Shown here: one piece after another, positions 1 to 63,673 of the stretch
Layout: each line of letters begins with the position of its first letter
Position numbering within the stretch: the stretch's first letter is position 1
Assembly (NCBI GenBank): GCA_000092065.1
Contig: CP000591.1
Direction: 5' to 3' (one strand)
Length of the DNA stretch: 64,000 nucleotides
From: Ostreococcus lucimarinus
Taxonomy: Eukaryota
Made by a program: the position numbers and the translations under genes
Notes under the pieces: generated by a model
What the model was told of the DNA's origin: nothing
Database searches by the model: none
The model's input: only the letters and a program-made list of their open reading frames with translations

Positions 1-543
1 TGCGTCGTGCACGTGGCGTCGAACGGAGGGTTCATTTTCGCTGGAAATTTAATGCTCAAGGCGGCGAACGGCGACGCGACGGCGCGCACGATTTTTGAGC
101 GGACGAAGGGCGTCGTGTTCGATTGCGCCCCTGGAAATTTGCGGCCCGATATCGTGGCGCGGGCGTTCGCGGCTGTCGTTGGAGGCGCGAGCGCGACGAG
201 TGAGCCATCGCCGTATTTCGAGGTGTTTGCGTCGTGGTTGTTAGGGAGAAGGGTTCTCAGCGAACGTTTGCTGAGGATCGATGAGTTGTGGGGCAAGGCG
301 GGAGCGCCAGAGTCAATCTTGTTGCGTTGCCCGTCGATGTTCATGTACAGCGAAGCCGACGTACTGATTTCCCCACGCGAGATCGAGGCTTTCGCGACGC
401 TCAGACAAGACCAAACCGGTCACAGGAGCACTCTTCACAAGTACGACGACGCTGGGCACTGCGAAATTGGCCGCGACGACTACGAAGATTACAAGAGCAA
501 GGTGACCGATTTCTTAGAGCGCGTCGTGCATTCGGCGGCGTAG
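1..543 (+). CDS. C-terminal fragment of a DUF829/TMEM53-like alpha/beta-hydrolase family protein (5' end lies outside the window)
   Basis: The frame is open from base 1. The ORF-track ORF 7..543 begins with GTG, so it is a continuation rather than a start. The hydrolase-like C-terminal motifs (ILLRCPSMFMYSEADVLI, DDAGHCEIGRDDYEDY) are what I am relying on. Confidence 0.45.
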   Translation, partial: CVVHVASNGGFIFAGNLMLKAANGDATARTIFERTKGVVFDCAPGNLRPDIVARAFAAVVGGASATSEPSPYFEVFASWLLGRRVLSERLLRIDELWGKAGAPESILLRCPSMFMYSEADVLISPREIEAFATLRQDQTGHRSTLHKYDDAGHCEIGRDDYEDYKSKVTDFLERVVHSAA

Positions 544-585
544 CATTTGTTGTATTATTTTCTAGATTTCTAGTCATCGCGGCGT

Positions 586-3555
586 CTAAGTTGATGTTGT
601 TTGCGAGCGCACGCGCACGAGGTCTTTGATTTCTTTCACGAATGATGCGTTTGCGAGTAATTCTTCACACGCAACATGGATTCTGAACCGCCAGTAATGT
701 TTGGGATTCGTTGGGTCGTTGATTGTTTCTTCCAGCGCTGGTCGCTTGGCGTATCGTTCGTCGAGCGCAAGAACGTCTTGAATCGGGAAAATAGCCAGCA
801 CGCTCGGACTTTCGATGTGCTGGGTGAGAATTCGGCGCATCACACTCGGCGTGCACGCGTCGTCATTTCCGCACTGAAACATCTCGTCGTATCGCGCACG
901 GCGTTCGGCGTCTTCTTCCCACCACGCTCGCGTGGTCATGGTGTCGTGACAAGAAGGCGAGCAAACCGTTAAGTATGAATACGTGTGCGGGCGACCGAAT
1001 TCTGAACTTTCGCCCACGGGAGGCATGCGCTGAATGCGTAAACCTAGAATACCAAGTTCATCCATCACAGGCGGCACGCACATCGGTGTGAAGCCGAGGT
1101 CTTCTCCACACACGAGCATTTCCGTCGATTTCAACAGCGCGGGTAACACTTTTCGTGCTTGCTTACGCCATGTGTTCGTTTGACGGCCGAAATAGTAATC
1201 GTTCGACAAATCTCTGAGCGCGTCTCGCATCCAGCCTTCGAGCGCTTGGAAAGACGTCGTCTCTTCGAGCCCGAACCGAGGATAGAAATGGTCGATATTC
1301 TCCACGTCTGTCAAGAGGCATCGGTTTTGAAACAGTTGCATCAATCCAGCGCGAACCAAGAGTTGTTCGTCGTTGAGATGCATCGGGAAATCTCCGCGAG
1401 GTTTCGTTGCGGCAAAAATAGCCTGTTCAGTGTCAAACTCACGTCTGAACTGCCATAATCCGCGCTGATCATCGACCTCGATCATGTATCGATACGCGAT
1501 TTCGTGCACGTTTTCTCCGAAAAGCACCTCTAACTCGTGCCATTGGATATAAGGCTGCGTCAGACGATTGAGATCCCACAACCCACGCGCCGCGAGCTCG
1601 TCGCGCGTGAGCGGTAGCGACGGCCTGAACCGACCCATGCGCCCAGTTGTAGCGCTCGCGGGAAGTTCCCATATTCGGAAGAATCCTAAGATATGATCGA
1701 TACGAATCGCGCTGAAGTACTGCTCCAAGTGTTGCATGCGAGCTCGCCACCAGGCGTAGTCGTCCTCAGCCATAGTTTCCCAGTTGTACGTCGGGAATCC
1801 CCAGTTCTGTCCGTTTGCATCAAAAGCATCGGGCGGCGCGCCCGTGGAAGTATCCATGCGGAACAAACGTGGGTGCATCCACGTATCGACGCTGCGTTTG
1901 TCCACGCCGACCGGAAGATCGCCTTTCAAAATGACACCCTTTGACTTGGCGTATTGCGCCGTCGTAACCAGTTGGGTGTGCAAATTGTACTGGAGGTAAA
2001 AAAAGAATCGTGTCGACTCGTACAAATCGCCTCCCGGGCAATCAATCTTGTCCAAAATTTCTTTCGAGAACGTGGCGAACACACCCCAACGCCAATGTTC
2101 AGCCGTACCGAACAAATCTCGAAGTACGCAAAAGACGCCGTACGGTCGCAGCCACGATTCATTGGCTTTATAAAACGTTTGAAAATCATCAGACGCGAGA
2201 ACCTTTTCGCCGTCGGTATAATAGGCTCGACGCGCGAACGAAAGTTTCTCCTTTACCGTTGCCTCGTAGTCGATCTCTTTCAAGTCCAACGCCACGCGCG
2301 CGGCTTCGATTTCCTCCGCGAGTTCCGCCGTGACGCCGGATAGCTCTTGCACGCGCAGATACATGACGTGAAGCGCGTGCACGGAGAGCGACGAGTACGG
2401 ATAAGAGTCCCAAAAAGTGCCGTACACGCACGTGTCATTTACCGGCAACACCTGCACCACGGACATCCCAGTCGTCGACGCAAAGTCCACCATTTGACGC
2501 AAATCCACAAAGTCGCCGCACCCGACGCTCTGCGCCGTGCGCACGGAGAAGACGGGAAGCGCCATTCCCGAACCTTTCCAAACCCCGCCGTGGGTGAAGA
2601 CGCCATCGCGATGAATCAATCGTCTTTCTACCGCGTTTGCGACGTCCCCGTCGTCGCTCAGCGAACACTCTCGCGCGCCTCGAGCGTCCTCCACGACGTC
2701 GTCGCCGTCCCGAAGGGCGTACGAGTACTCAAACGGCAACTCGGACGCGTCTACTTGGAACTCGATCGTCCACACGTCCGTTCCCGCGCGTTTGCCGAGC
2801 GAGCGCTCACTTTTCAAAGCCGCGCACGACCCACGCACGACGACGCGCTGGGATTTCGTCGCACGAGGCGCCTTAATCTCCAACCGCACGTCTACTCCGG
2901 CGCGCCCGCGCTTCGCCGGCGTCGTCTCCCCATTCGTCTCGCACCGATCTCCCACGACTTCGTGCGCCAAATCCCCGCGTCCCACGTACTCCGGCGTCAC
3001 CACGCTCGCGAACGCCTTGCGTTCGAACACGTGCTCCGCCGTGGCGCGCGAATTCCACTCGTCCGCGCACTCCACGCCTCGCTCGCCGCGCGTCCCGCGC
3101 CCGTCCTCCAACTCCAACGTCCGCACCTCCCCGTCCCACGCGATCACGTGTTCGCGCTCGTCGATCACCGCGTACCTATACTCGATCGTCCTCCTCCCGT
3201 TCGCGCTTTTCCCGCTCCCGAGCCCTCCGTCCTCCGCGCGCGTCTCCGCTCGCCACTCGAGCTCGCGTTCGCCGCGTCCCGCCCGACACCGCATCCGCAG
3301 CCCTCTCGCCGGGTTCCATCGTCCCAGCGCCGCGTCCGCGCCGCACACCACGAGATTCTCCCCCCAATTCGTCCAGTACGACGTTCGAAACGCGATCGTC
3401 GTCCCATCGCGCGCGCGCGTCGCCGTCGCGCCCGACGCCGTTAATCCGTCCGCGTCCTCGTCGGCGTCTTCGCGCCGTCGTTCCGTCGTCACCGTCGCGA
3501 GCGTCGCGTCGAGCGCGCGCGCGAGCGATGCGACGTCGTTCGGCGCGTCTCTCAT
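586..3555 (-). CDS. DPE2: Cytosolic disproportionating enzyme 2-type 4-alpha-glucanotransferase (N-terminal CBM20 starch-binding domains + GH77)
   Basis: The long minus ORF 586..4350 was trimmed to the first plausible ATG (MRDAPNDV, ATG at 3555). It carries CBM20 signatures (YWTNWGENLVVCGADAALGRWNP; VWTIEFQV) and a GH77 amylomaltase core (GFFRIWELP, DHILGF, GEDLGFTP). The R-rich N-terminal extension in the ORF track was judged non-coding. Confidence 0.8.
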   Translation of the reverse strand: MRDAPNDVASLARALDATLATVTTERRREDADEDADGLTASGATATRARDGTTIAFRTSYWTNWGENLVVCGADAALGRWNPARGLRMRCRAGRGERELEWRAETRAEDGGLGSGKSANGRRTIEYRYAVIDEREHVIAWDGEVRTLELEDGRGTRGERGVECADEWNSRATAEHVFERKAFASVVTPEYVGRGDLAHEVVGDRCETNGETTPAKRGRAGVDVRLEIKAPRATKSQRVVVRGSCAALKSERSLGKRAGTDVWTIEFQVDASELPFEYSYALRDGDDVVEDARGARECSLSDDGDVANAVERRLIHRDGVFTHGGVWKGSGMALPVFSVRTAQSVGCGDFVDLRQMVDFASTTGMSVVQVLPVNDTCVYGTFWDSYPYSSLSVHALHVMYLRVQELSGVTAELAEEIEAARVALDLKEIDYEATVKEKLSFARRAYYTDGEKVLASDDFQTFYKANESWLRPYGVFCVLRDLFGTAEHWRWGVFATFSKEILDKIDCPGGDLYESTRFFFYLQYNLHTQLVTTAQYAKSKGVILKGDLPVGVDKRSVDTWMHPRLFRMDTSTGAPPDAFDANGQNWGFPTYNWETMAEDDYAWWRARMQHLEQYFSAIRIDHILGFFRIWELPASATTGRMGRFRPSLPLTRDELAARGLWDLNRLTQPYIQWHELEVLFGENVHEIAYRYMIEVDDQRGLWQFRREFDTEQAIFAATKPRGDFPMHLNDEQLLVRAGLMQLFQNRCLLTDVENIDHFYPRFGLEETTSFQALEGWMRDALRDLSNDYYFGRQTNTWRKQARKVLPALLKSTEMLVCGEDLGFTPMCVPPVMDELGILGLRIQRMPPVGESSEFGRPHTYSYLTVCSPSCHDTMTTRAWWEEDAERRARYDEMFQCGNDDACTPSVMRRILTQHIESPSVLAIFPIQDVLALDERYAKRPALEETINDPTNPKHYWRFRIHVACEELLANASFVKEIKDLVRVRSQTTST

Positions 3556-3648
3556 CTCGCGCGCGCGCGCGATCGACGCCGCGGCGGCGAGTGACGGACG
3601 CGATTCGCGCGCGCGCGATTCGCGATCGGTCGCGCGCGGTCGGTCGTC

Positions 3649-3664
3649 GTATGTGCAAACAGTG
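3649..3664 (+). promoter_or_regulatory. Recurrent 16-nt motif GTATGTGCAAACAGTG (copy 1 of 5)
   Basis: It lies in the DPE2/Der divergent spacer, 84 nt upstream of the Der ATG. See the findings for the other four copies. Confidence 0.4.
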
Positions 3665-3732
3665 AGGAGTTGGTGTTTCGGTGCCGCCGCGCCCGCGCGC
3701 GACGGCACACGTCGACGCCTCGCGCGCGAGCG

Positions 3733-5616
3733 ATGCGCGCGACGACGGCGACGTGCGCGCGCGCGATGCGGTGCGGACTGTCCAGAGCGCTCGACGCGCG
3801 AGGGCCGGGCGCGACGCGCGCGGCGGGCGCGACGCGACGACGCGCGACGACGACGCGGCGCGCCGCCGGCGGCGGGACGACGACGGACGACGACGACGAC
3901 GACGCGCGCGCGCGGGCGAGCGGGACGTCGGCGATCGAGATGGAGCGCATGGACCGCGAGGCGCGGACGTACGCCACGGCGTGGGCGAACGAACTGGCGA
4001 GCACGCTGTCGGAGGACGCGAGGGCGCTGGAGCGAAGGCTGTTCGGCGACGAAGGCGGCGCGAGCGAGCGCGGCGAGGACGAAGACGAAGACGCGAGCGA
4101 GGAAGAGACGGTCGGGACGAGCGGGAGGAAGGGGAAGGCGCGCGCGGACGCGAGAGTGCGAAGGAAGACGCGACGAGATTGGAGTAAAGTGCCGGACGAG
4201 GCGCTGCCAAGAGTCGCCGTCGTGGGACGGCCAAACGTGGGGAAGAGCGCGTTGTTTAATAGACTCACTGGAACGAAACGGGCGATCGTGTACGACGAGC
4301 CGGGGGTGACGCGAGATCGGATGTATGTGCGCGCGTATTGGGGCGAACACGAGTTCATGATGGTGGACACGGGCGGGTTGGAAAATTTACCGGCCAATCC
4401 CGAGGGTGGGCCGAAGACGGACACCGTCGGCGGCGTCGAAATCTTACCTGGGATGATCGAGGCGCAGGCCGCGGAGGCTGTGCGAGAAGCGTCTGTGCTC
4501 ATTTTTGTCGTCGACGGTCAAGTTGGGCTGACGGCGGCGGATATGGATATTTTCGCCTGGTTGCGTCGCACGCACTCGAAAATACCGCTCCATCTGGCGG
4601 TGAACAAGTGCGAGAGCACGACGAAGGGGGAGGACCAAATCCTCGAGTTTTGGTCTTTAGGCGACGTTACCCCACTCGCTGTTTCCGCCATCAGCGGCAC
4701 CGGGACCGGGGAGCTTTTGGATAACATGTGCGCGACTTTGCCGCCGCCTCCGCAAGTCTCCGAGGATGAAAACGCAGAGGAGGAAGATATTCCCGTCACA
4801 GTCGCCATCATCGGCCGACCGAACGTGGGGAAGAGTTCGTTGTTGAATGGTTTGGCCGGTGAAGCGCGATCGATCGTGAGCGACTTTTCTGGTACCACAC
4901 GAGACAGCATCGATACCTTGGTCGAGGACAAGTACACGGGGCGAAAGTTTACACTCATCGATACGGCGGGCATTCGGCGACGAACTCAAGTGAAATCCGG
5001 CACGGATGGAGCCGAAAAACTCAGCGTCGGTCGCGCTTTGCAAGCGATGAAGCGTGCAGACGTAGTGGTGCTAGTTATAGATGGTACTGAAGGACCGAGC
5101 CAACAGGATTTTGTACTCGCCGAGCGCGCCACGCAAGAGGGCTGCGCCATCGTGTTGTGCATCAACAAGTGGGATTTGGTGGACAAGGATACGCACACGA
5201 TGAACAAGTATACGGACGATATGCGATTAAAGTTGCGTGTGTTTGAATATGCCGAAATTGTGTACACGTCTGCGCTCACTGGACAGAGAATCCAAAAGAT
5301 TTTAGACGCCGCGCAGGTGGCGAGCGAGAATCACCGCAAACGTCTCACCACGGCGACGCTCAACTCTGTCGTACAAGAGGCGACTTTGTGGAAGCTCCCG
5401 CCGTCGAGAAACAGCAGAAAGGGTAAGATTTATTACATCACGCAAGCGTCGATACGTCCACCGACGTTCGTCTTTTTCGTGAACGACCCCAAGCTGTTTC
5501 CGGACACGTACCGTCGGTACATGGAGCGCCAACTGAGAGAGAACATCGGCTTCCCGGGAACTCCGATTCGCTTGCTGTGGAGAGGAAAGGGCGTCGAAAA
5601 AGGGCCGAGGAAATAA
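3733..5616 (+). CDS. DER: Double-domain GTPase Der/EngA (plastid-type) with an N-terminal presequence
   Basis: There are two GTP-binding domains with G1 motifs (VAVVGRPNVGKSALFNRL and VAIIGRPNVGKSSLLNGL), DTGG/DTAG and NKWD motifs, and a KH-like C-terminus. The ORF-track start at 3670 is TTG, so the first in-frame ATG at 3733 was used. The N-terminus is rich in R, A and T, like a transit peptide. Confidence 0.8.
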   Translation: MRATTATCARAMRCGLSRALDARGPGATRAAGATRRRATTTRRAAGGGTTTDDDDDDARARASGTSAIEMERMDREARTYATAWANELASTLSEDARALERRLFGDEGGASERGEDEDEDASEEETVGTSGRKGKARADARVRRKTRRDWSKVPDEALPRVAVVGRPNVGKSALFNRLTGTKRAIVYDEPGVTRDRMYVRAYWGEHEFMMVDTGGLENLPANPEGGPKTDTVGGVEILPGMIEAQAAEAVREASVLIFVVDGQVGLTAADMDIFAWLRRTHSKIPLHLAVNKCESTTKGEDQILEFWSLGDVTPLAVSAISGTGTGELLDNMCATLPPPPQVSEDENAEEEDIPVTVAIIGRPNVGKSSLLNGLAGEARSIVSDFSGTTRDSIDTLVEDKYTGRKFTLIDTAGIRRRTQVKSGTDGAEKLSVGRALQAMKRADVVVLVIDGTEGPSQQDFVLAERATQEGCAIVLCINKWDLVDKDTHTMNKYTDDMRLKLRVFEYAEIVYTSALTGQRIQKILDAAQVASENHRKRLTTATLNSVVQEATLWKLPPSRNSRKGKIYYITQASIRPPTFVFFVNDPKLFPDTYRRYMERQLRENIGFPGTPIRLLWRGKGVEKGPRK

Positions 5617-9532: not shown

Positions 9533-9548
9533 GTGTGCGCAAACAGTT
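9533..9548 (+). promoter_or_regulatory. Recurrent motif GTGTGCGCAAACAGTT (copy 2 of 5)
   Basis: It lies in the H3/H4 divergent promoter, 114 nt upstream of the H4 ATG. An exact 18-nt repeat CGCCTCACGCCGCGCGCG flanks the promoter at 9301..9318 and 9578..9595. Confidence 0.4.
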
Positions 9549-22590: not shown

Positions 22591-22606
22591 GTATGGGCAA
22601 ACAGTG
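22591..22606 (+). promoter_or_regulatory. Recurrent motif GTATGGGCAAACAGTG (copy 3 of 5)
   Basis: It lies in the LPA1-like / O-methyltransferase divergent spacer, 112 nt upstream of the ATG at 22718. Confidence 0.4.
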
Positions 22607-36186: not shown

Positions 36187-37841
36187 ATCGACCGTTGAAG
36201 AACGTGAAGTTTGTGGTGAAAGATATATTTGATATCGAGGGACGACGATGCGGGTTCGGGTCGCCGGCGTTTAAGCGGACGGGAGGGAAAGGCGGGACGG
36301 CGGGCGCGAAGCGACACGCGCGGTGCGTGCGAACGCTCCTGGAGGCGGGAGCGAGCGCGGTGGGGATGACGACCATGGATGAGCTGGCGTACGCGATTAA
36401 TGGGGAGAACGCACACTATGGAACGCCTATAAACCCGCGAGCGCGAGCGTTAGTGCCGGGAGGGTCGTCCTCGGGATCGGCGGTGGCGTGCGCGGCGGCG
36501 CTTCGAGGATGCGAATTCGCGCTCGGGACGGATACCGGGGGATCGGTGCGAGTGCCGGCGTCGTATTGTGGGGTTTACGGGATACGCACGAGTCATGGAT
36601 CAGTATCTATGCGTGGTGTGCAAGCTTTGGCTCCGAGTTTTGACACCGTGGGGTGGTTTGCGCGATCAATAGATGTCTTGCAGCGCGTGGGAGACGTGTT
36701 GTTGCCAGAGCCCGACAAGCACGCGCCGACGGAACCGAGCCGCTGGCTTTTGCTGGAAGACGCTGTGAGTGCGAAACGCTCTACACCACACTCGCAGTGT
36801 GCTGCGGTTGCCGCGGTGACGGCGCTCCACGAGATTGCGCCGGCGGATTTCAAGCGAATGAATCTCACAGAGCACTTGCTCGTCGGTTGCCCAAAGTTCC
36901 GGTCGCTCGTAAACGGTCGCGAAGACTACGGCTTGGACTGCCTCAGAGAGATGGTTCGCGTGCTCATGGGGGCGGAAATCTGGGAAAATCTGGGAAAATG
37001 GTACACTGAGGAAAAGCCAAAGCTCGGTGCCGCGGTCAAGGCGAGGATGGAAGCCGCGTCAAAGCTCGACGCGGACGAAGTCGAACGCCTCAAGGAAGTG
37101 CGAGAGGAAGTGCGAGAAGAAGTGGATCGCATATTAGACGGTGGCGCCATATTCATACTTCCCACGACGCCTGGCAAGGCCCCTAAACGTGGTCAAAGCG
37201 ATCAGGCGACCGAATCTTGGCGAAGAAAGTGTTTTGAGCTGCTGTGCATCGCGAGCCTGTGCGGTTTGCCGCAGGTGTCGATACCTCTCGAGGCTCCAAA
37301 CATCGAAGGTCCGCAAGGGCTGTCACTAATCGCTGGATACCAAATGGACAAAATGTTGATCGGAGCCGCTCGTCAAATCGTTCCTGCGCTCGTCGAGGCG
37401 TATCCAGATATCCTAGAAGCTGAGTTAGAGCGCCTGAATCCACCCGAGGCTCCTGGCGAATCCGAAAAGACCAAAGGAAATGAAGCCCTGAAGCAGGGCA
37501 AGTATCAAGACGCGATCGAATATTACTCGGTGGCGATTGGAAAGAATCCTAAGAGCAAGATTTTCGTAGCAAACAGAGCCATGGCGCACCTAAAGCTTGG
37601 GAACTACCAGCTCGCCGAAGATGACTGCACTGAAGCCATCAAGCTTGATGCGCGGTACGTGAAGGCGTACCTTCGCCGGGCGGCGGCGAGGTCGGTGGCG
37701 GGGAACTATCTCGAAGCATTGATGGATTACGAAGAAGCGTTACGCTTCGAGCCTAACAACTCGGACGCGAAGAGAGAAGTGTATAGAATGAAAAAAATCA
37801 TAGGAATGGCCGATCCAGGCATGGACGTTGGCGATATGTAG
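35922..37841 (+). CDS. Amidase-signature protein with three C-terminal TPR repeats and an N-terminal membrane anchor (Toc64/OEP64-like)
   Basis: An N-terminal hydrophobic segment (AVAAIVALAIELA) is followed by the amidase signature (GGSSSGSAVACAAALRGCEFALGTDTGGSVRVPASYCGVYGIRTSHG). The C-terminal TPR motifs are KGNEALKQGKYQDAIEYYSVAI..., NRAMAHLKLGNYQLAEDDCTEAIKLD and RRAAARSVAGNYLEALMDYEEAL. Poly-Thr tracts are encoded by (GAC)n repeats at about 36056..36075 and 36150..36185. An alternative ATG lies at 35967. Confidence 0.7.
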
Positions 37842-37875
37842 AGCTCGATACAGTCAGTTGCAATTAATAAGTGAA

Positions 37876-40105
37876 CTAATTCGTCGAACGTCTTGAGAAC
37901 GTTTTACTCGCTAATTCTGACAACCACGACTTCTTGATCGACGAAACGTCGCGCGCGTACATTTTATTCGTCCTAACTAACTCGTTGAAAAGAATCTGCG
38001 CCGCAAGAAAAATTGTCAGCGTGAAATAATTAATTGTAAGGAAATAATTACTCACCGTCTCTGGAGGCGATTGAAACATCACCGAGCTCGGGTGAATCGT
38101 TAGCTTCTGGCCCGTTGTAAAGACTTTGAACGATCCATCCATTTCCTTCGAAGCCGTATTCATGAAAAAGCCCGATACCAGCGATCGTAGCACGAGCGTG
38201 AAGTCGTCTTCACATGAAGTCAAATTAATTCCCTGCGACATTGCTGCTCGTGTCAATTGCTCGTTGATCTTGACCGCTTTTGTCATCGCTCGATGGTTAA
38301 TCTGGTGCTCTCTGCACCAATCGCGACTTCGCTTCGGACTGCAGGCCGAAAATTCGTTGAACACGCGCAGCAACGTCAAATGATCGCCCTCCTGAAATAA
38401 TTGTGTAAGAAAATATTAAATTATTTTTTCTTGGTCGACTCACCTTTCGCTTCAATTTGTGTCTTGCGACATTCTTTTGCCCGTCTGCCTCCCTGGAAAA
38501 CTGAAACACGCTATCTGTTGACAGCATGGACAAAACAGCGAGTGTTTCGATAGCGCACCCTTCGATTTCAGCGGCAATTACGCATCGTGCAGCCATGGGC
38601 TCGAGGGGAAACCTCGCCATTTTTTTTCCGACGTCGTTAAGCTTTCCATCGTCGTCTAAAGCGTCCAGCGAGTACAATAATTCAAGTGATCGTAATAACG
38701 CCTCTTTAGGCGGCGGATCGATGAAAGGAAACGACAAAATGTCGTCAACTTGCATTGCCTGCGAAATAAATAAATAATTCAGTTAATTTTTAATTGTCTC
38801 AGGAAAGCGCTCGATTCGGGCGCGACAGATCCTTACCTTTAGCTGAAGAACTACTCCACTTAAATTTGTACGCAGCAGTTCCGGTTTAACGTATTTTTCC
38901 AGGCTCGGCATGATTTCTTCGGTGTAGAGTCGAAAGCACTTACCAGGCGCTTCGCGCCCGGCTCTACCGGCGCGCTGTTGCGCCTGACTCTGCGCAATCG
39001 GGGTGACCAGGAGCTCGTCCACGCCGCTTCTTGGATGATGCGTTCGTAGTTTACTCAGTCCTGAATCCACAACGTACCGAATCCCATTGATCGTCAACGA
39101 TGTTTCGGCGATATTCGTCGCCAAGACGACTTTGCGCGTTCCCAGAGGCGTCGGCTCGAAGACCTTCATCTGCTCCTCCGGGGGCAGCGCAGCGAACAAG
39201 AGTACCACGTTGAGTTTCAGCACGTTTGAGGGAAGTTCAGACGCTTTCTCTCGCAACATCCTTCCCAACGACTCGATCTCCTCTTGACCAGTTAAGAATA
39301 CTAAGACATCTCCCGCCGCCTCTTCCTCGTTCACTTGAAGCACCGTCCACATCGCGGCGTCCAAGTAGTCCTCCTCCGGCTCCTCTGTGTAGAACATTTC
39401 GACGGGAAACGTGCGGCCACGGGAGTAGATTACGGGCGCACCATCGAAGAATTTACTAAAACTCGACGCTTCAAGCGTAGCAGACATGACGATGACGCGT
39501 AACGGTGGCAACGCGCGTCCGTACTGGTCCTCGCCGAGCGATTCGCGTCGACGACGTTGCACGCCTTTGATCGTGCCCAACAGGAAATCGGTCTGCAACG
39601 TGCGTTCGTGCGCTTCATCAATCATGATAACACCGTACTTTGACAGTAAAGGATCTCCGACCGCCTCTCGCAGGAGCATACCGTCGGTGAGAAACTTTAT
39701 GCGCGTCTCTTCGCTCGAGACATCTTCGAATCGAATGGCGTACCCCACGAGCGTGCCGTGCGCCGTACCGGTTTCATCGGCCACGCGACGCGACACGGAC
39801 ACTGCCGCCACCCGTCTCGGCTGTGTGACGCCTATCATCAACCCATTCGTCAGCGTCATGTCTTCGTACACGTATTGCGGAATTTGCGTCGTCTTCCCGC
39901 TTCCGGTTTCGCCGATGATGATGACGGTTTCGCTCTTCCTAATCTCCTCCATCAATCGATCCTTCGCGCGATATATCGGCAGTGACTTTCGCACTCGGTC
40001 GATTTCTTCTCTCTTCGCTCCCGTGGGTGCCCCGTTCGCCTTCCGCGCGTCGGACGTCGACGCGTCTCCGCCCCCGCGTTCGCGTCCCTCGCGAAGCGTC
40101 TCCAT
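37876..40105 (-). CDS. DEAH-box RNA helicase (DHX33/DHX35-like), four exons: complement join(38837..40105,38444..38758,38056..38391,37876..37995)
   Basis: Exon 1 has the helicase core (GETGSGKTTQIPQY, DEAHER, SATL, TNIAETSLTINGIRYVVD, QRAGRAGR). The three introns are 78, 52 and 60 nt, AT-rich (about 25% GC), with donors GTAAGG, GTGAGT and GTGAGT and acceptors CGCAG, TTTCAG and GCGCAG. Splicing restores the conserved EGDHLTLLRVF, HPSSVMF and ILFNELVRTNKMYARDV blocks that the ORF track splits into three ORFs. Confidence 0.8.
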
Positions 40106-43184: not shown

Positions 43185-44131
43185 CTAGAAAGACGGAACG
43201 CTCACGCGACCGGCGATGCGATCGAGATCCCGTTGACCGGACGGAGTGATGCGGCGACCACCCTTCGCATCCTTCTCGACGACACCGATGGATTCGAGCT
43301 GCTTGAGCACAGCGCGCGCGACGCTACCGGAACCGATTTGGTGGTGGTGACGACGAACGCCCTTGTTACCCGCACCGCAGTACGACTTGCGCAACGCACC
43401 CACACCCATGTTACCCTTCGTGTAGAGCTTGCGAGCGACCGAGGCAGCGCGAATGTAAAACCAATCCGGGTCGTACGGCGCGAGCTCCTTGTACGTCGCA
43501 GTCTTCACGGTGTCGACCCACTGCGGAACCTCCATCTGTTACGAGCGAACGAAATCATAGCCACGGTCAGTGTCAAATCACGATGGCGCTCTCGCCTCGG
43601 CCCCGACGCGCGCGCGCTCGCGAGGGTTGGCCTCTGAGCCACCGTCGGTCGATCGCGACGTCTCGGTCGCCTGCGTCGCGCGACGTCGCGCACGCGCGCC
43701 GACGAACGCGCACGCGATCGCATAAATGCGATCGCGCGCATCTCTCGTCGACGTCGCACGACGGCACGCGCGCCGTCGCCCTCACAGCGCCGGCCCCCGA
43801 CGCGCGCGGTGAAGCCCTAGCGCTCGACTCGACGCCCACGTCGCGCGCCTTCGTCGACGCCCAAACGCCCGCGCGTCGTCTCGCGCGACGACGATCGATG
43901 CGCACGAATACGTTCGCATTCGTCACCGCCGACGTCGTCGCGTTCGATCGTCCATCGCCGCGCCGTTCGCGCGCGCGCGTCGTCGCTCGATCGCGCCGCG
44001 ATGCGCGAGCGTCGTCGTGCGTTCGATTCTTCGCGTACCTTGCCGGTGGATCGGAAGTATTGCGCCAGAGCGATGACGAACTCCTGCGCGGGGACGTCCT
44101 TGACCGTTCTCGGGGCGTTCTTGGTGGCCAT
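43185..44131 (-). CDS. RPS19: 40S ribosomal protein S19 (eS19), two exons: complement join(44039..44131,43185..43535)
   Basis: Exon 1 encodes MATKNAPRTVKDVPAQEFVIALAQYFRSTGK, followed by a GTACGC donor. The 503-nt GC-rich intron has a CTGAC branch site about 33 nt before the CAG acceptor. Exon 2 is the ORF-track ORF 43185..43535 (MEVPQWVDTVKTATYKELAPYDPDWFYIRAASVARKLY...). The whole protein aligns with eS19. Confidence 0.85.
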
Positions 44132-44200: not shown

Positions 44201-44209
44201 TTAGGGTTT
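44201..44209. promoter_or_regulatory. Telo-box (TTAGGGTTT = AAACCCTAA) in the RPS19/RPL29 bidirectional promoter
   Basis: An exact Arabidopsis-type telomere-repeat motif lies centrally in the 170-bp spacer between the divergent RPS19 ATG (44131) and RPL29 ATG (44302). Confidence 0.5.
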
Positions 44210-53447: not shown

Positions 53448-53463
53448 GTATGCGCAAACAGTT
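53448..53463 (+). promoter_or_regulatory. Recurrent motif GTATGCGCAAACAGTT (copy 4 of 5)
   Basis: It lies in the Sec24/NCKX divergent spacer. Confidence 0.4.
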
Positions 53464-56807: not shown

Positions 56808-57034
56808 GGCGGCCGACAGTGGGGACGCGGACGCGCGCGCACATGTGCACACGTCGCTTTATTTGCTGACATTTTTTATATAGCGTCATTGGAGGTATTC
56901 TAGTACCTCAGCGTTCATATAAGGACGGTGCGTATACCTATTTACCAGAGAAATGGCAAAGGCCCTTTCGTCAACACGTGCGTCTTTCGCGGGACGACGG
57001 AATCATTCATGTGAGCGAGGGACGAATGCGTGCG

Positions 57035-57088
57035 TGAATGAATGAATGCATGAATGAATGAATGAATGCATGAATGCGCAATGAATGG
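57035..57088. repeat. (AATG)n / GAATGAAT microsatellite
   Basis: The run tgaatgaatgaatgcatgaatgaatgaatgaatgcatgaatg lies in the 3' UTR of the WRKY gene. Confidence 0.8.
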
Positions 57089-57163
57089 GCGCGATGCGTG
57101 CGATGACAAACTGACAAACGACGGCGCGATGGCGACGACGGCGACACAACGCGAGCGGCGACG

Positions 57164-58522
57164 TCAACCGAATAAGGAAAAGGAGCACCGCGGACGACGC
57201 GCGGGCGAAGGCGCGCCGGGCGAGGGCTCGCGCCGACCGCGAACGGTTTTGGAGAGCGACGCCAGGAGAGGGGTGCCGGTGACGATGGCCTCGAGGGGAG
57301 ATTTGAGGAGATCGCCGATGGACCAGTCGTCGCGGGGGGAGCGGCGCGCCGAGGGGTCGTCGGCGACGACGCGAAGCGCGGGGGGACGCGCGGGAAAGTC
57401 GTCGCGGCGGCGGCGGTCGAGAGATGATCTCGGCGGTGCTGAGGTGCGATCTTCCGCGGTCGGCGGATGGGGGGACGATTGGAGCAATCGAGCCTCGAGA
57501 TCGGCGTCGCCGAACGGCCACGTGGGCGAGAGAGGCGACGCGGGCATGAAGTCAAACCAATGACGCGGCGTCGGCGCGGAGCGATCGGCGACGGCTTCGC
57601 GATGGACGCGGGCGGCGTCGTCCATTCGCGTGCGCGCGTGCGCGTGAATGAGCGCGTTTTCCAGCGCCAAGGCGTCGTAATCCGAGCTCCATCGCTCGCT
57701 CGCGGTCAAGTACTCGTCAAAACACGTCAAGACGTCACCCATGGCGGCGAACGACGGGCTCAGCGGATTCACGGCGCGTCTCGGCTTCTTCGCCGCGACG
57801 GCGCTGCACGAGGATTCTCGGCGCTCGCGCGCGGACTGTCCGGATCCGCTGGACGTCGTCAGTAATCGACGACCACTTCGCGATTTTCCTGACGCCGAGC
57901 GCTTCGGTTTCGTCGTGCTCGACCGCGGTTCGAGTGGAATCTTCTTCGCTCGCGGCGGAGTCTTCGGCGTCGCTCTCCGTCGCTTGCCCGCTCGAAGATT
58001 TTCCTCCTCCTCCTCCTCCTCCGCAGACGTCGTGAAATCGCTATTCATCGTCGTCAAGTCACATTCATCTTGAACGTCCGCGCCTCGTCGCACCGTCGTC
58101 CCTCGTCGCGCGTTCGTCGCCGTGGAATCTCCGCTCGCGCGCGTCCCGAAAGATTTCGTCGACCCGGGCGCGAGCGTCTCCGCCCGACCGCCACCCCCGC
58201 TCGGTTTCGCGTGCGTGTGTTCGCCCTCGTAGCACACCACCGTCTCCATTTCTCCATCCTCACTCGCGCGTCGCAATTCCGTCTTCTTCCTCGCCGGACA
58301 CCCTCGCTCCGTGCACCGGTAATACGACCGCGGAAACGACGATCCCTTGATGTTCTTTTGCCCGTACTTGCGCCATCGGTACCCATCGGCGTGCGCGCTC
58401 GACGGCGCGTGCGCCGCGACCGTCGTCGTCGACCTCGACGTCGAGTGCGGATACGATCGTCGCGGTCGATCGCCGGCGTCGTCGTCGTAAACGCGCGTCC
58501 CGTGCGTCGTCGTCGTCGCCAT
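57164..58522 (-). CDS. WRKY-domain transcription factor
   Basis: The canonical WRKY domain is present ([37 protein letters not shown]...EGEHTHA). The ORF-track start is GTG, so the ATG at 58522 was used. Confidence 0.8.
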
Positions 58523-58944
58523 CGTCACCGAGAAAAGTCAACCCGCGCGCCCTCGCCTCGATTCGATCGCCGTTCGTCGCGCGTCGCGCGTCGCGCGTCG
58601 CGCGTCGCTCGCGCGCGCGTCGCTCGCGCGCGTCGCGCGCGTCGATCGCTCCCGCCGTCGCCTCGCCGTCGTCCGCGCGCGTCGCTCGACGACGCGACGC
58701 TCCACCGCCGCGCGCGCGACGTTCTGTCGTCCGCCCGTCGTCGCGCGCGCGCGCGTCTCCGGGCGCCCTCGCGCGCGCCTCGCGCGCGCGCACTCACGCG
58801 CCAGCGCCGAATGTCTGTTTTTGCCCCGCCCCGCCCGATCGTCGCGCGCGCGCGATCGCCGGCGTCCCGGCGCGCGGTCTCCGGGCAGACGAATCGCCGT
58901 TCGCGCGTCCGAGTCATCCGTCCGCGGCGACGGGTCTACAGTTT

Positions 58945-58994
58945 CAGAGAGTCCCCCGACTGACGAGTCATGATTCGTCGACGGGGACTCTCTG
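58945..58994. repeat. Inverted repeat / hairpin (12-bp perfect arms CAGAGAGTCCCC...GGGGACTCTCTG with a 26-nt quasi-palindromic spacer)
   Basis: The left arm is at 58945..58956 and the right arm at 58983..58994. The spacer is centred on TCATGA. It sits in the WRKY upstream region at the left edge of a low-GC island. Confidence 0.6.
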
Positions 58995-59078
58995 AACCGG
59001 GACGTGGGATTTTTACCGTATGGGTCACGACTCCTCGTTCGGGGGTACTCGTATGAAACGCCGTAATTTTATTGATGC

Positions 59079-59100
59079 TAGGGTTTAGAAATTAGGGTTT
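59079..59100. promoter_or_regulatory. Two adjacent telo-box motifs (TAGGGTTTAG aaat TAGGGTTT); a third copy lies at 59173..59180
   Basis: They are Arabidopsis-type telomere-repeat units (TTTAGGG) lying 110-210 nt upstream of the ATG at 59291. Confidence 0.5.
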
Positions 59101-59290
59101 ACACGTCAAAAATCGCCGAGGTTCGATTACAAACGTGTCAAAAACGTGGCTTTTCTGAAACTCGATTTTTGCTAGGGTTTAGCGACTCCGGTTTTCCGGC
59201 GGAATTGCGTGCGGGCGGTTGGGGGCGGCGGCGTCGTCACTCCTCGCCGACGTGTCGGCAAAAGACAGAGAACAGTTCGCCCCCGTCGAA

Positions 59291-59959
59291 ATGAGCGACG
59301 GTGCGATGCGCCCGTGGTTTCTTCGCGACGAGGATAGGCGCAGGAGCCTCGTATACGGCGTGGGTGCGGTCGCTTTCGCCCTCTTGGGGTTGGTCGTGAC
59401 TACTGGTTCGAGGACGGAGTATAAGGTGGTTGCGTACAAGCCAAGTCTTTATGAACACGTCGGGTCGCATCAAGTCAAAGCCCACTATGACATTTACCCG
59501 GATACACATGACATTCACCAGGCAGATCACCCTTCTGAGGATCCTGCAGATCCTGAAGAGGAACTAGTTTACAAATATAATGGTAAGCATGTTTCTTCAG
59601 CAAACGAGAATCGGATTCGGGCACTGTACTCGCCATCAGGCTCGTCCTTCATAGATGTGGTCAAACGGGAAGGTGTGGACGACGCTACCATTTTCGAGAC
59701 GTGTCTGTATCCAACAGTGACAGCTGAATTCAGGACGTACTACGGCCACGATCTGACAATCGAACCAGATACGACGAGCAAGGATCTAGGGAAGCCGGTG
59801 AACCAAGTCGAAGCACACCAATTTGGTTGCGTGTGGGAGAAGTTGTTGAATAAACTAGCGGAGTCGAACTGGAAATTCGTCACGTCCGAAACGATTATGA
59901 CTGAAAAGACGTTCTATGAGATGCATATGATTACGTTCTCACGAAAAAAGACTACGTAA
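59291..59959 (+). CDS. Hypothetical single-pass membrane protein (222 aa) in a low-GC gene
   Basis: The ORF-track start at 59219 is TTG, so the ATG at 59291 (MSDGAMRPWF) was used. There is one TM helix (LVYGVGAVAFALLGLVVTT). GC drops to about 50% across the body, against about 68% in the flanks. No family was recognised. Confidence 0.4.
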   Translation: MSDGAMRPWFLRDEDRRRSLVYGVGAVAFALLGLVVTTGSRTEYKVVAYKPSLYEHVGSHQVKAHYDIYPDTHDIHQADHPSEDPADPEEELVYKYNGKHVSSANENRIRALYSPSGSSFIDVVKREGVDDATIFETCLYPTVTAEFRTYYGHDLTIEPDTTSKDLGKPVNQVEAHQFGCVWEKLLNKLAESNWKFVTSETIMTEKTFYEMHMITFSRKKTT

Positions 59960-59986
59960 AATAGTTTTGATGTTGTTTAGATTGTC

Positions 59987-60002
59987 GTATGGGCAAACAG
60001 TT
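59987..60002 (+). promoter_or_regulatory. Recurrent motif GTATGGGCAAACAGTT (copy 5 of 5)
   Basis: It lies 28 nt after the stop of the low-GC ORF and about 660 nt upstream of the RPL38 ATG. Confidence 0.4.
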
Positions 60003-60106
60003 AGACATTCTCCACAGCTTCCATTCGCGCGACCAGAGCGTTGACGCGCTCTTCGAGTTCGTCGATGCGGCGCCTTGCGGGAACCTAAACCGGATACGCG
60101 CAAACC

Positions 60107-60134
60107 CGTGGGACAAGATTCGTCTCGCCGCGGC
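60107..60134. repeat. Perfect 28-bp palindrome GATTCGTCTCGCCG|CGGCGAGACGAATC
   Basis: It is a loop-less perfect palindrome (cruciform potential) at the right edge of the low-GC island. A partial telo-box CCCTAGGGTT follows at about 60163. Confidence 0.7.
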
Positions 60135-60664
60135 GAGACGAATCGGACCGCCCGTTTCGAATTTCTAGGAACCCCCTAGGGTTGTGACGGGGCGGTCCGT
60201 GTTTCGTCGTCAGTCTCGAAGGCGGGCGCCCCTCGGCGCGCGCGCGACGCGCGCGCGCCGTCTCTTCGTGACGCACATAGACGCATCATGGTGCGTGCGA
60301 CGCGCGACGGCGACGAGGCGACGCGCGCGAAATAGACGCTCGATGCGCGCGCGCGCGATCGGGCGTCGGCGCGCGATGGACGGCGCGGACGACGCGCGGA
60401 CGACGCGCGATGGCGATGGCTCTAGGGCTTGAAGCGCGATCGCGCGTTCGGGACGCGCGCGCGCGGAGAGAGACGCGCGAAGGGCGATCGCGCGTCGCGA
60501 GCGCGAGCGGTGATATCGTCGTCGGCGGCGGTGCGGTGCGAGCGGTGATGGGGGGGTCGACGGCGCGGGGAGCGCGGGGGAGACGGGACGACGCTGGCGC
60601 ACTAGGGTCGCGCGAGTGGATGATGAAAGAGAGACGACTGACGATCGAGCGACGACTTGGCGCG

Positions 60665-60886
60665 ATGCGAAAACAGCCTAAAGAAATTAGCGAAATTAAG
60701 GACTTCTTGCACACGGCGCGCCGGAAGGATGCGCGATCGGTGAAGATCAAGAAGACGGCGGGCGTGACCAAGTTCAAGGTGCGCTGCTCCAAGTACTTGT
60801 ACACGCTCTGCGTGAAGGACTCCGATAAGGCGTCCAAGCTCAAGCAGTCGTTGCCCCCGGGACTTCAAGTGATGGAGGTCGCTTAG
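60665..60886 (+). CDS. RPL38: 60S ribosomal protein L38 (eL38)
   Basis: [73 protein letters not shown] aligns over its whole length with eL38. It sits inside the ORF-track ORF 60410..60886. The body is lower in GC than the flanks. Confidence 0.8.
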
Positions 60887-61053
60887 AGTTTGAAGGTCAC
60901 ACACACTAGTCGGAGTTATTAGCGCGAGAATGGAAGACGGCGCGAAGCGCCTTGTAAAGAGAGTTCGATCCGTCTCACATTTCATTTCGTTTACTCATTC
61001 GTTCGGCTATCGCTCTCACAATGCGCTAAGCGTAATTCACGACTCGGCTCGAT

Positions 61054-62227
61054 TCACGCCACGACGCTGGTGCGACGCGGAAGGTTGAACATGAAATCGA
61101 CTTCGAGCTCGCCGTCTTCCGTCAAGTCGGCGCAATGCACGGCGTTGCGCTGTTTGTCCTCCCCGAAACGCGCGCGAAGGGATTCGGGACGTAACACGCG
61201 GGCAATTTCGGGGTCTCTCGGTCCGACGATTTCTCTGATGTCGTCCACGAGCGTCTCCGGGGACCTCAAGCGCGAGAGTTGCAGCGCCACGCAAGCGCCG
61301 CAACTCAGTTCATCGATCATCATCTTCACCTCTTCCTTGTCTAAAACGTCCACGTAAACGGCGTAAAATGCCTCTGCCTCGAGGCGCGTTAGCGCTAATG
61401 TTCGAGCCTGGATTAAATCCAGTCCTTTCTTCTCGCACAGGAAATCTAAAATCGCTCCGAGATGCGCCATACCGCTGGGTTTGACCACGACGAGCGACGA
61501 ATGCTCGGTGGGTGATTTCGACGACGATCCCGTCGCCAGCTCTCCTAACGCTCGAGCGTGCTCTTCGTCCATCGATCGCACCACATCGTTCGTGTGAGCG
61601 AATAATCTGGCCAAAATTGCATTCGCCTCGCATCCAATCGCGCGTATCGCGCACGACGTCCCAGACGCGAGCGCCCTCGCGTTCCTCGGCAGCGCCGTCT
61701 CGAGCTCTTCCAACCGACTCGTCCCGAACGCCACCGTCTTCATCTCTGCGATCGTCAACCCGTTCTCCTGCATCGCGTGCACGATTCTACCGATGCGGCA
61801 CACGTTTTCACTCGACACCAAGGCGAACGATTCCTCGCGCTTCGTCTTCATCGCCGTCGCCGTGCGTTCGTCCGCGTACCCGCGCACGGTCAACCGCCTC
61901 GACCAAATCGTCACCGTCGCGCCTATGAATAGCTCGTCCAGCGCGATCGGCGTTTCCGGCGCGCATTTCCGCAAAAATGCTTTCTTTCGTTTATCCTCAA
62001 TCTGCGCCGCGTCGTCGCGTCGCCTCCGTCAGTCATCGTCGCGCTCGCGCGCTCGCCTCCCACAGAGCACCAACCATCCATCCAGACGTCGCGCTTTACT
62101 CGCGCGCTCAACGCACCAATTCCACGTCGCCATCCTCGGGGTAATAAAACAACGTAAACGCTCGCTCGAAGTCTTGCGCGGGGTCCACCCAGACCGCCTG
62201 AAATCCAAGTCTGGACTCGGTGCGCAT
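61054..62227 (-). CDS. NME7-like protein (DM10 domain + nucleoside diphosphate kinase-like domains), two exons: complement join(62117..62227,61054..62001)
   Basis: Exon 1 encodes MRTESRLGFQAVWVDPAQDFERAFTLFYYPEDGDVEL, ending at a GTGCGT donor. The 115-nt intron has a GATGACTGACGG branch motif and a GGCGCAG acceptor. Exon 2 begins IEDKRKKAFLRKCAPETPIALDELFIGATVTIWSRRLTV, completing the DM10 domain (compare human NME7 ...LLFYPGDGSVEMHDVKNHRTFLKR...LEDLFIGNKVNVFSRQLV). NDK-like domains follow (VVVKPSGMAHLGAILDFL...LALTRLEAEAFYAVY). Confidence 0.65.
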
Positions 62228-62344: not shown

Positions 62345-63673
62345 TTATTTCAAAATGGATAAAAATCGGAGGTAGGCCTCGGCGGCGCGCTTGCGCGAGG
62401 CGCGGTAGCGCACGGCGAGCAGCGCGCGAGGCGAGAGCGACGCGGCTTCGGCGGAAGCTAATAAGGCTTCGTCCTCGGCCAGTGTCGTCGGACAGGCGGA
62501 TAAGTACGAATCAACGGCCTGACGTAAGGCTTGAATGACTTCAGGGTCGGTTTCTGGGGGAGCTGGGGCGTCAGCGACGCCCGGGGGCGGACCGCGCGAG
62601 GCGACCATGAGGAGATTGGAACCCGCGAGCGCGGCGGCTTTGTCGCCGGCGTCGTCGAGGGCTTTGCATGCGTCGGCAACGCGAGATCCGTGCACACGTC
62701 GAGCGCCCGGGGCGATAAATTCCATGGGCAATCGTTCGTTACGATTTTCATCGTCGATGAAACCGTAGTGAAGCATGAGCAAGGCGTTGTTCATTCTGTC
62801 GCCGTACGAGATGAAAACCTCGGTGTTCGCCACCGGCGTCGGGCCCTCGATTGAATCTTCGTTCCACGTGAGCTCGAAGTTCTTACCATCCGCGCTGACG
62901 CCATACTTTGCCGTAGATTCCACTCTGTGATTCGCCAAATCGATCGTCGGCGCCAAGAACGCGCAATCCGCGTCGCCCAGTTTACCGCTAATCGCTCGCG
63001 TGTGCACCCACGAGCGACACCATCGGAGTTCGTCTTCGCTCGACGTCCCCAGCGCGGCTTTCACGTCCGGAAACGCCTCCATCGCGGCGTTCCAAGTCGC
63101 TTCGTACCCAGCCTTCGAGCGTTCGGCCATGACGCGTATCTCAGCGTCTTGCAACATCTCCAACTCCTCCTCGTTCGCCAAGTACCCGCAATCGAACGCC
63201 GCCGGCACCACCTCCGCGCCGTACGCCCGCCACGCCTCCGCGTTCTTCACCGCCCACGCCAGCATCGCCGCCAATCGCACGTCCTTCGCGAACGGCGCCG
63301 ATATCACGAATTCAATCAGGCACTCCGGCACGTCCACGCCGAAATGTCTTCGCCAGCCCTCCCGATACGTCTCGCGAATCGCCGTCGCCGCGCGTCCCTC
63401 CGCGCCCTCCCCGACCGCCGCCGGCGCGCACACCAGTGCGTCGATCGCGACGCTCACCAGCGCGCTTCCGGTGCCGGTGACGAACAGTCCGCGCCCGTGC
63501 GCGCCGACGTCCACGCGCGCGTGTCGCAGCGTCGACGCCGGGTCGAACGTCGTCGTCCCGCGCGCGTCCGCGTCCGCGACGGCGCGGCGCGTCGACGCGC
63601 GTCGCGCGCGCGTCGATCGCGCGCGAGAGGGGCGCGCGAGGCGCGCGTCGACGCGAGCGGCGGTCGCGGGCAT
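62345..63673 (-). CDS. SET-domain lysine methyltransferase of the Rubisco-LSMT/SETD3 type with an N-terminal presequence
   Basis: The SET core (RGLFVTG, FAPTIDLANH, ELTWN, EVFISYG) is followed by an LSMT-type substrate-binding C-terminal helical domain. The ATG at 63673 was verified. Confidence 0.7.
   Translation of the reverse strand: MPATAARVDARLARPSRARSTRARRASTRRAVADADARGTTTFDPASTLRHARVDVGAHGRGLFVTGTGSALVSVAIDALVCAPAAVGEGAEGRAATAIRETYREGWRRHFGVDVPECLIEFVISAPFAKDVRLAAMLAWAVKNAEAWRAYGAEVVPAAFDCGYLANEEELEMLQDAEIRVMAERSKAGYEATWNAAMEAFPDVKAALGTSSEDELRWCRSWVHTRAISGKLGDADCAFLAPTIDLANHRVESTAKYGVSADGKNFELTWNEDSIEGPTPVANTEVFISYGDRMNNALLMLHYGFIDDENRNERLPMEFIAPGARRVHGSRVADACKALDDAGDKAAALAGSNLLMVASRGPPPGVADAPAPPETDPEVIQALRQAVDSYLSACPTTLAEDEALLASAEAASLSPRALLAVRYRASRKRAAEAYLRFLSILK

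Follow-up and report, generated by a model that had tools for sequence, protein, structure and literature searches.

Endogenous insertions of polinton-like viruses (PLVs) and virophage-like elements are known from protists, where they bring DNA related to double jelly-roll viruses into nuclear genomes, including those of algae, vary between strains, and have a GC content below that of their surroundings (PMC10120064). For Ostreococcus sp., one to two copies of the major capsid protein (MCP) gene have been counted (Bellas et al., 2023; PMC10120064). The locus described here is a low-GC island at 58999-60128 in a 64,000-nucleotide stretch (the window) of contig CP000591.1 of Ostreococcus lucimarinus CCE9901. 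It is likely a strain-variable 1.1-kb insertion, either a fragment of, or a cassette shuttled by, a PLV lineage that infects and integrates into Ostreococcus, and it resembles the known insertions in all three respects. It differs from them in being only a 1.1-kb fragment, in which a single cargo gene is intact and capsid, ATPase, and replication genes are missing, and in that its promoter-plus-gene unit recurs with different ends, more in the manner of a shuttled cassette than of a whole virus. Endogenous PLV-related fragments being already known, the unusual features here are the shuttled promoter-plus-gene cassette and its telo-box promoter; no description of this cassette was found in the literature.

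Telo-boxes (AAACCCTA) are classic promoter elements of ribosomal-protein genes in plants. The same core is found in the window, where two host TAGGGTT copies lie 70-110 nt upstream of the RPS19e and RPL38 starts, whereas the three copies in the island belong to a virus-related cassette and not to a ribosomal-protein gene. We know of no description of this motif for the promoters of Mamiellales or of PLVs. Another comparable system is that of modular viral fibre proteins, in which an N-terminal anchor carries exchangeable heads. A group of relatives of the island protein (group B, below) likewise has an N-terminal module of about 80 aa with varied C-termini and is encoded beside capsid genes, and an adjacent gene carries the Peptidase_S74 chaperone domain typical of viral fibres; the protein of the window, in contrast, has a transmembrane (TM) anchor in place of the viral one. 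As a pure analogy for function, mouse Fv-4 and the sheep enJSRV env, both cases of receptor interference, also combine a virus-related attachment-type domain with a host-encoded membrane protein. Ostreococcus is a model for the coexistence of the smallest eukaryotes with viruses, and its resistance has been associated with hypervariable parts of the genome in which no genes were identified. The present locus offers a case on an ordinary chromosome, in which a strain-specific insertion is defined together with its empty site and its relatives and can be linked to an uncultured PLV lineage. It places a "predicted protein" of the reference in accessory DNA, outside the core genome, and leaves three leads: a surface domain shared by host and virus, a telo-box-type promoter of viral cassettes, and a palindrome-flanked hotspot of DNA capture.

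The evidence that carries the insertion comes from wild relatives. A look-up of contigs encoding the exact neighbouring NDK protein gave ten environmental contigs from ten different samples (L013-L022), and in all ten the SET, NDK, RPL38, and WRKY genes stand in the same order, with no gene called between RPL38 and WRKY and an interval about 1 kb shorter than that of the window. By megablast, these contigs match window 57000-58998 and 60129-62000 at 95.5-99.8% identity (at least 97.7% in nine of the ten), while 58999-60128 is without a match in every one of them and 5-88 nt stand in its place. Because ten flank-matching environmental contigs lack 58999-60128, the island is, by alignment, a presence/absence insertion between two host palindromes. 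The first-pass annotation of this DNA had proposed a check for synteny breaks at the palindromes and had named ordinary syntenic orthologues as refuting evidence; the flanks are collinear and ~99% identical in the ten contigs, and the search for orthologues turned up the opposite. The filled allele also exists in the wild: L027, a contig from a JGI metagenome, matches 58838-60072 at 100% identity, and this match across the left junction shows that the allele is no artefact of the reference.

In the commonest empty allele, GGGGACTCTCTGAACC, CGTGGGATCCCG, and CGCGGCGAGACGAATCGG follow one another, whereas the window joins CTCTGAACC to GGGACGTGGGATTTTTACCG on the left and GCAAACCCGTGGGACAAGATTCGTCTCGC to CGCGGCGAGACGAATC on the right. 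The spacer of about 12 nt between the host palindromes takes at least five different forms among the ten empty alleles; such hypervariability among wild haplotypes has the look of a local hotspot of mutation. At the left junction, the donor sequence GGGACGTGGTA shows microhomology with the host sequence CGTGGGAT. The right junction (60073..60116) consists of about 30 nt of uncertain origin followed by the host target AACCCGTGGGA (60103-60113), which repeats the CGTGGGA of 59003; this heptamer is found at 59003 and 60107 and once only in the empty alleles. Its reading as a target-site duplication was replaced by one of host target plus microhomology with GGGACGTGGTA, and the assignment of the right-junction filler to group C upstream sequence, with an exact core of 12 nt, was too weak to use.

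Host hairpin 1 (58943..58996) has 14-bp arms, TTCAGAGAGTCCCC at 58943-58956 and GGGGACTCTCTGAA at 58983-58996, rather than the 12-bp arms first reported for it, and a loop of 26 nt; as single-stranded DNA, it folds with -19.5 kcal/mol (z = -4.9), and the insertion begins 2 nt past it. It is kept in eight of the ten empty alleles, with the right arm complete in six and its end deleted in two (L014 and L022), and its presence there identifies it as host sequence outside the insert. L017 and L021 have a different right half of this hairpin. Host palindrome 2 is the perfect 28-mer GATTCGTCTCGCCGCGGCGAGACGAATC, as had been noted, although it lies at 60117..60144 and not at 60107-60134, a shift of 10 nt. 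Its right arm is present in 9/10 empty alleles (L017 diverges), and its left arm is variably eroded among them; since left-arm remnants persist in some, ATTCG in L013 and GAT..C in L019, palindrome 2 is read as an ancestral host feature, and an origin as an inverted flank copy made by the insertion was dropped. The two palindromes are each self-complementary and not complementary to one another, and the CGTGGGA repeat is imperfectly placed. Both fold far better than shuffled sequence and are the sole hairpins of the window with perfect arms of at least 11 bp and an arm GC below 0.64; the others are GC-rich, many of them made of CG or ACG low-complexity repeats.

The inserted segment proper (58999..60072, + strand) is missing from the ten environmental alleles and is 97-100% identical to copies elsewhere. 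Copies at least 97% identical to the island stand in two other genomic contexts with different boundaries. L023-25 and L029 match window 58998-60066 at 97% and no further, and then continue into other genes; on L023-L026 and L029 (GC about 0.49), the right side is occupied by a convergent S74/SlyX-like gene followed by a dynamin-like gene. The S74 gene of these donors scores 23.3 bits for Peptidase_S74 (cutoff 22) and 29-30 bits for a SlyX-like coiled coil (Pfam, L023-25). L028, a GC-rich, host-like contig of 13.7 kb (sulfotransferase, NDK, rhodanese, and DnaJ-like genes), matches 59152-60011 only, at 98%. The window itself retains, at 60001..60072 on the minus strand, the truncated 3' end of this Peptidase_S74/SlyX-like coiled-coil fibre-type gene, namely the last 23 codons, ending in RRIDELEERVNALVARMEAVENV, and the stop; the full gene continues in L023-25, and the truncated piece of a neighbouring gene marks the island as a copied fragment. 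L027 has the left junction of the window and runs on into in-frame S74/coiled-coil sequence, which suggests that the CCE9901 allele is a truncated derivative of an originally longer insert, unless L027 is chimeric. The open reading frame (ORF) of the cassette is intact in every copy, and copies differ by 0-7 nt (mostly non-synonymous) and by in-frame indels. The dynamin-like gene of L023 (1804-4080) has a 65%-identical, low-GC (0.47-0.51) orthologue at 408-3002 of L031, which sits in a GC-rich eukaryote contig (0.60-0.67) without an adjacent cassette.

The intact ORF (59291..59959, + strand) encodes 222 aa with one TM helix and, by exact-sequence look-up, is XP_001420353.1/ABO98646.1, a "predicted protein" of O. 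lucimarinus CCE9901. Its extent and single hydrophobic segment had been read correctly beforehand; its description as an orphan does not hold, given this accession and a family of 21 word-indexed and 69 profile matches in marine metagenomes, the profile search covering 1.8 billion proteins. The protein has a short basic N-terminal tail, a TM helix at about residues 19-40, and a C-terminal part of about 180 aa that closes with an alpha/beta domain bearing two invariant Cys; the basic stretch and the helix that follows it predict a single-pass membrane protein of type II orientation. The ORF has no Pfam match. Its last 110 residues or so were modelled as a small alpha/beta domain (pLDDT 70-90), for which the structural-neighbour search gave no informative neighbour, and a Foldseek search of BFVD, an incomplete library, gave no match with E <= 0.001. 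Upstream of the ORF, a conserved in-frame stretch from 59219 contains no ATG. A published O. lucimarinus trimeric TM protein related to a repeat ORF of the outlier chromosome could not be linked to this gene.

The family falls into three groups. Group A is composed of the window ORF and its close copies. Group C shares the 5' end of the ORF (89% DNA identity over 59226-59399), its C-terminal domain being divergent. In group B, it is the C-terminal domain that is shared, at 36-45% amino acid identity and with DNA patches of 75-85%, and the proteins begin with a different, nearly invariant module of about 80 aa, which in the profile search also heads proteins with FG-GAP propellers, DUF285 repeats, or long coiled coils. 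From this architecture, group B proteins may be regarded as exchangeable fibre or spike proteins, with the N-terminal module as the candidate capsid-anchoring domain of an uncharacterised fibre family. The proteins with such C-termini that begin with this group B module, there of about 65 aa (…NRVTLNNHDGDVYxESTGxxSEIVxKTQKVRVDGDVY…), are 500-860 aa long (P0084, P0092, P0098, P0105, P0108, P0124, and others). Other family members have TM anchors and Pro-rich stalks, which point to the domain as a surface-exposed module of membrane and virion-type proteins. As its likeliest role, the ORF product might be a cell-surface protein at the virus-host interface, for example one that occupies or mimics an attachment partner of the virus, a speculative assignment in which we place little confidence. 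In P0021, the N-terminal tail and TM module of the ORF and group C is fused to a fatty-acid-desaturase-type domain (PF00487), through either chimeric assembly or module shuffling.

The link to PLVs is made through other contigs. L032 (17.9 kb of a 24,999-bp contig; GC 0.45) encodes an S74 protein, a P-loop ATPase, variable cargo, methylases, a 327-aa protein, an MCP, and a Prim-Pol+DUF5906 primase-helicase, which by gene content is the set of a PLV; Prim-Pol+DUF5906 was assigned by precomputed Pfam, Pfam matches of the P-loop protein are only weak, and the protein of 327 aa is a candidate penton. On L002, a group B gene lies between P-loop ATPase and C5-methylase genes, upstream of two capsid-like genes; a 446-aa protein of this contig aligned with 27 homologues and gave a model with a pLDDT of 86.6, and the longest contigs with these genes measure 20-25 kb. 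A double jelly-roll MCP is found on L002 and L032 and not in the island. In blastn comparisons with L032, identity is 76-78% for L002 and 93% for L001 (group B contexts), 88% over a cargo gene for L003 and 74% over the methylase for L010 (group C contexts), and 66-67% for the S74 gene of the group A donors, which is also clearly homologous at the protein level; these matches tie all three ORF groups to the PLV lineage. For the island itself, homology to virus runs from its 97% copies through their S74 gene to L032, and its C-terminal domain and a 30-nt module are common to L002.

Two further contigs carry related genes in host-like surroundings. L010 is a 40-kb contig, one host gene of which clusters at >=90% with an O. 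lucimarinus protein; its end block (1-4300) is low in GC and contains an N6_N4 methylase-DUF5906 fusion and a group C gene beside a rhodanese/AAA gene, and probably represents the integration of a polinton-like element into an O. lucimarinus-like genome. About 50 nt upstream of this group C gene stands a double telomere-like unit, AAACCCTAAACCCTAG, and a short palindrome is common to L010 and L032. In L001, a group B cassette and a methylase fragment form a low-GC patch of about 1 kb in GC-rich host-like DNA, a second "island" of the same kind. L001 5859-6904 and L002 2235-3628 carry a nearly identical cassette, from about 130 nt upstream to about 55 nt downstream of the ORF, except for two short hypervariable patches in the coding sequence, with a Cys-rich stretch included in them, around which synonymous sites are conserved; the pattern suggests cassette exchange or targeted diversification.

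The three TAGGGTTT telo-boxes reported for the island were all found, at 59079, 59093, and 59173, and with a fourth copy elsewhere they make four in the window against 0.23 expected, a number reached in 0/100 shuffles. The first two belong to the telo-box-like units GCTAGGGTTTAG and ATTAGGGTTTAC (59079..59100, + strand), conserved in the donor-context copies L023-25, and the third is held by a promoter-like module of 30 nt, TTCTGAAACTCGATTTTTGCTAGGGTTTAG (59153..59182, + strand). This module matches L002 588-617, an intergenic position between two divergent genes of the virus contig, in 29/30 nt, and forms the left edge of the shorter cassette of L028, where homology starts at 59152; L023-L025 have all three telo-boxes of the island and L028 retains the third only. 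Telo-box units are also found in intergenic regions of L002 and L032, and upstream of group C genes, at a distance of 50-100 nt, CTAGGGTTTAGGGTTTAG stands in the opposite orientation. On the host side, the sole TAGGGTTT outside the island (44202-44209) is 71-78 nt upstream of the start codon of the minus-strand RPS19e gene (exon 2 at 43185-43535), and the telo-box-like CCTAGGGTTGTGA (60175..60187, + strand; TAGGGTT at 60177) is about 110 nt upstream of the RPL38 ATG. The latter is conserved in nine empty alleles, the tenth (L013) having CTAGGGTTGTGA, and the identical 13-mer stands in a divergent promoter of virus contig L032. The two host TAGGGTT sites of the window are thus upstream of the sole ribosomal-protein genes identified in it, a very small sample. 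The earlier-listed GCAAACAGT at 59993 and CCCTAGGG at 60174 are also present. The island copies came with the insert, of which they are the putative promoter. We infer that the host has in this motif a promoter element akin to the plant telo-box, and that viral cassettes use it as well; a separate host copy, CCTAGGGTTG, which all alleles conserve some 110 nt upstream of the RPL38 start codon, may serve that gene as its own telo-box.

These observations can be joined into a mechanism. A DNA fragment would have been taken up when a break at a fragile palindromic site was repaired, and would have landed in the spacer of about 12 nt that separates the host palindromes within the divergent promoter region of WRKY and RPL38. 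The hairpin-flanked variable spacer, the lack of terminal inverted repeats and of a clean target-site duplication, the microhomology, and the filler of about 30 nt fit repair capture better than transposition or site-specific integration. The cassette would carry its own promoter, built on CTAGGGTTTAG "telo-box" units, and host factors would transcribe the gene, given the likeness of these units to the motif that the host has upstream of ribosomal-protein genes. Its product would be a type II single-pass membrane protein with an extracytoplasmic C-terminal domain homologous to the head of a PLV fibre-like protein. In a wider form of this proposal, which we hold to be unlikely, Ostreococcus PLVs swap promoter-plus-gene cassettes with host chromosomes, the promoters copy the ribosomal-protein telo-box, and the membrane-anchored fibre head is kept because it interferes with virus attachment as a receptor-interference protein or decoy.

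Several points weigh against a PLV-derived insertion. The ends of the insert show neither terminal inverted repeats nor a clean target-site duplication, the features by which a cut-and-paste DNA transposon or miniature inverted-repeat transposable element is recognised and which the island sequence does not have. The direct repeat CGTGGGA flanks the insert, and, judged by the junctions alone, the empty alleles may have lost the insert by deletion. L027 could be a chimeric assembly. The content of the island is the ORF and a 23-codon fragment of a fibre gene, with no capsid, packaging ATPase, or replicase gene, and the viral link passes through neighbours of near-identical copies and DNA matches of 66-93% and not through a complete virus genome with the exact gene. 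In IMG/VR, an incomplete library, there was no match for the family alignment, a group B protein, the L002 capsid protein, or the promoter module (as a 26-nt query). The 0-7 differences among cassette copies are too few to measure selection, which makes dN/dS unusable. The dynamin-like gene of the donor contigs has more distant orthologues on eukaryote contigs of 150-210 kb, and these donor contigs may therefore represent host loci that harbour an integrated element, and not free virus.

The last of these points leads to an account in which the cassette moved within host genomes only, as a segmental copy from a low-GC outlier-chromosome region of Ostreococcus, and viruses took up the domain independently. 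Besides the dynamin-like gene of L023-26 and its eukaryotic orthologues on long contigs, the many family members with TM anchors and Pro-rich stalks, which are typical of host surface proteins, speak for it, as does the existence of low-GC host genes (the L031 dynamin gene; window 37769-38898). It is nevertheless unlikely, since the donor gene beside the ORF is of the S74 fibre type and homologous to that of the PLV contig L032, the group C sister genes adjoin PLV-like primase and methylase blocks, and the 30-nt promoter module is common to L002. An old resident host gene, lost from the ten environmental alleles by deletion between the CGTGGGA repeats, would explain why the filled allele has two copies of the heptamer (59003 and 60107) and the empty alleles a single one, and why the ORF is intact in every copy. 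Deletion between the repeats would, however, leave CGTGGGA followed by CAAGATTCG, whereas the empty alleles read CGTGGGATCCCG and other variants. All ten sampled haplotypes are empty and carry among them at least five different junction alleles. The island includes part of a second gene, cut short, the same cassette occurs in two other contexts with different end points, and its composition is unlike that of the neighbouring genes; a resident gene is on these grounds quite improbable.

Two readings of the telo-boxes offered by the first-pass annotation fare worse. An interstitial telomeric tract left by an ancient chromosome fusion has almost no probability: TAGGGTTT is indeed the telomere unit of the Arabidopsis type, and the island is enriched in it, but the units are single TAGGGTTTAG copies, successive TAGGGTTT units being separated by 6 and 72 nt and not tandem, they lie inside a 1.1-kb insert missing from close haplotypes with collinear flanks, and they travel with the cassette into other contexts; a TTTAGGG-pattern search of the island gave no hit. 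The same annotation had allowed the tract to mark an insertion, and that half of its suggestion agrees with the empty alleles. A cis-regulatory module of RPL38 is very unlikely as well. Telo-boxes are known in plant ribosomal-protein promoters, and some 160 nt separate the end of the island from the RPL38 ATG downstream of it; RPL38 is, however, present without the island in each of the ten empty alleles, where it has its own proximal CCTAGGGTTGTGA (CTAGGGTTGTGA in L013), so the island boxes are not its module. By position and distribution, then, the island telo-boxes are neither a telomere relic nor an RPL38 module. The third suggestion, a horizontally or virally acquired gene, comes closest to the PLV-derived insertion preferred here, with the gene absent from 10/10 syntenic sites, its cassette present elsewhere, and links to capsid contigs; the source appears PLV-like and not the prasinovirus that had been proposed, for which nothing was found in the incomplete libraries BFVD and IMG/VR.

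The base composition of the locus is less distinctive than it first appeared. The island has a GC of 0.509 against 0.696 at 58000-58998 and 0.691 at 60129-60700, and the immediate flanks are GC-rich at 0.69-0.75. The drop reported at the outset, 50% versus 68%, is real, although its second figure holds only for the flanks, which consist of intergenic and intron sequence, the GC-rich part of this genome; averaged over the window, GC is 0.596, and several ordinary genes have a GC at third codon positions (GC3) near 0.6. Whether GC variation of this size is common around single genes had been raised as a counter-check, and within the 64-kb window 5.7% of the segments of the same size have a GC no higher than that of the island, with four non-overlapping ones (0.444-0.501) below it. 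The GC3 of the ORF, 0.57 against 0.73-0.81 in the three neighbouring genes, falls near the bottom of the range spanned by window ORFs and inside it. The lowest-GC kilobase of the window (37769-38898; 0.444) consists of two adjacent unannotated minus-strand ORFs with a GC3 of 0.46-0.56, and GC alone is therefore no marker of foreign DNA in the window.

Around the island, the host WRKY gene (57164..58528, - strand; Pfam WRKY E = 1.5e-23) turns its 5' end toward it and stands beside the empty site in 10/10 environmental contigs. On the other side lies the full-length host RPL38 gene (60289..60886, + strand; Pfam Ribosomal_L38e E = 4e-35), whose structure, as read from the sequence, is composed of an ATG at 60289, an intron at 60292-60676, and exon 2 at 60677-60886; the island thus occupies their divergent promoter region. 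RPL38 is followed by its neighbour, the NDK-like gene (61054-61974, - strand), and by the SET/LSMT-like gene (62345-63673), which is XP_001420521.1 of O. lucimarinus CCE9901 by exact-sequence look-up. Rfam and tRNA scans of the island region were empty, and a bacterial promoter/terminator scan was set aside as irrelevant to a eukaryote. The motif GACGAATC/GATTCGTC has four of its ten window copies in the WRKY-RPL38 spacer (58888, 58972, 60117, and 60137), with the hairpin 1 loop and each arm of palindrome 2 among these sites, and may be a factor-binding site of the divergent promoter. The 15-nt motif GTATGNGCAAACAGT occurs five times in the window against 0.14 expected, always on the + strand (3649-3663, 9533-9547, 22591-22605, 53448-53462, and 59987-60001). 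Its fifth copy, the GTATGGGCAAACAGT motif at 59987..60001, is also present in the donor copies and L028 and thus came with the insert. Four of the five copies lie in divergent intergenic regions upstream of + strand genes, that of histone H4 among them, and the motif may be a core-promoter element or one proximal to the transcription start site.

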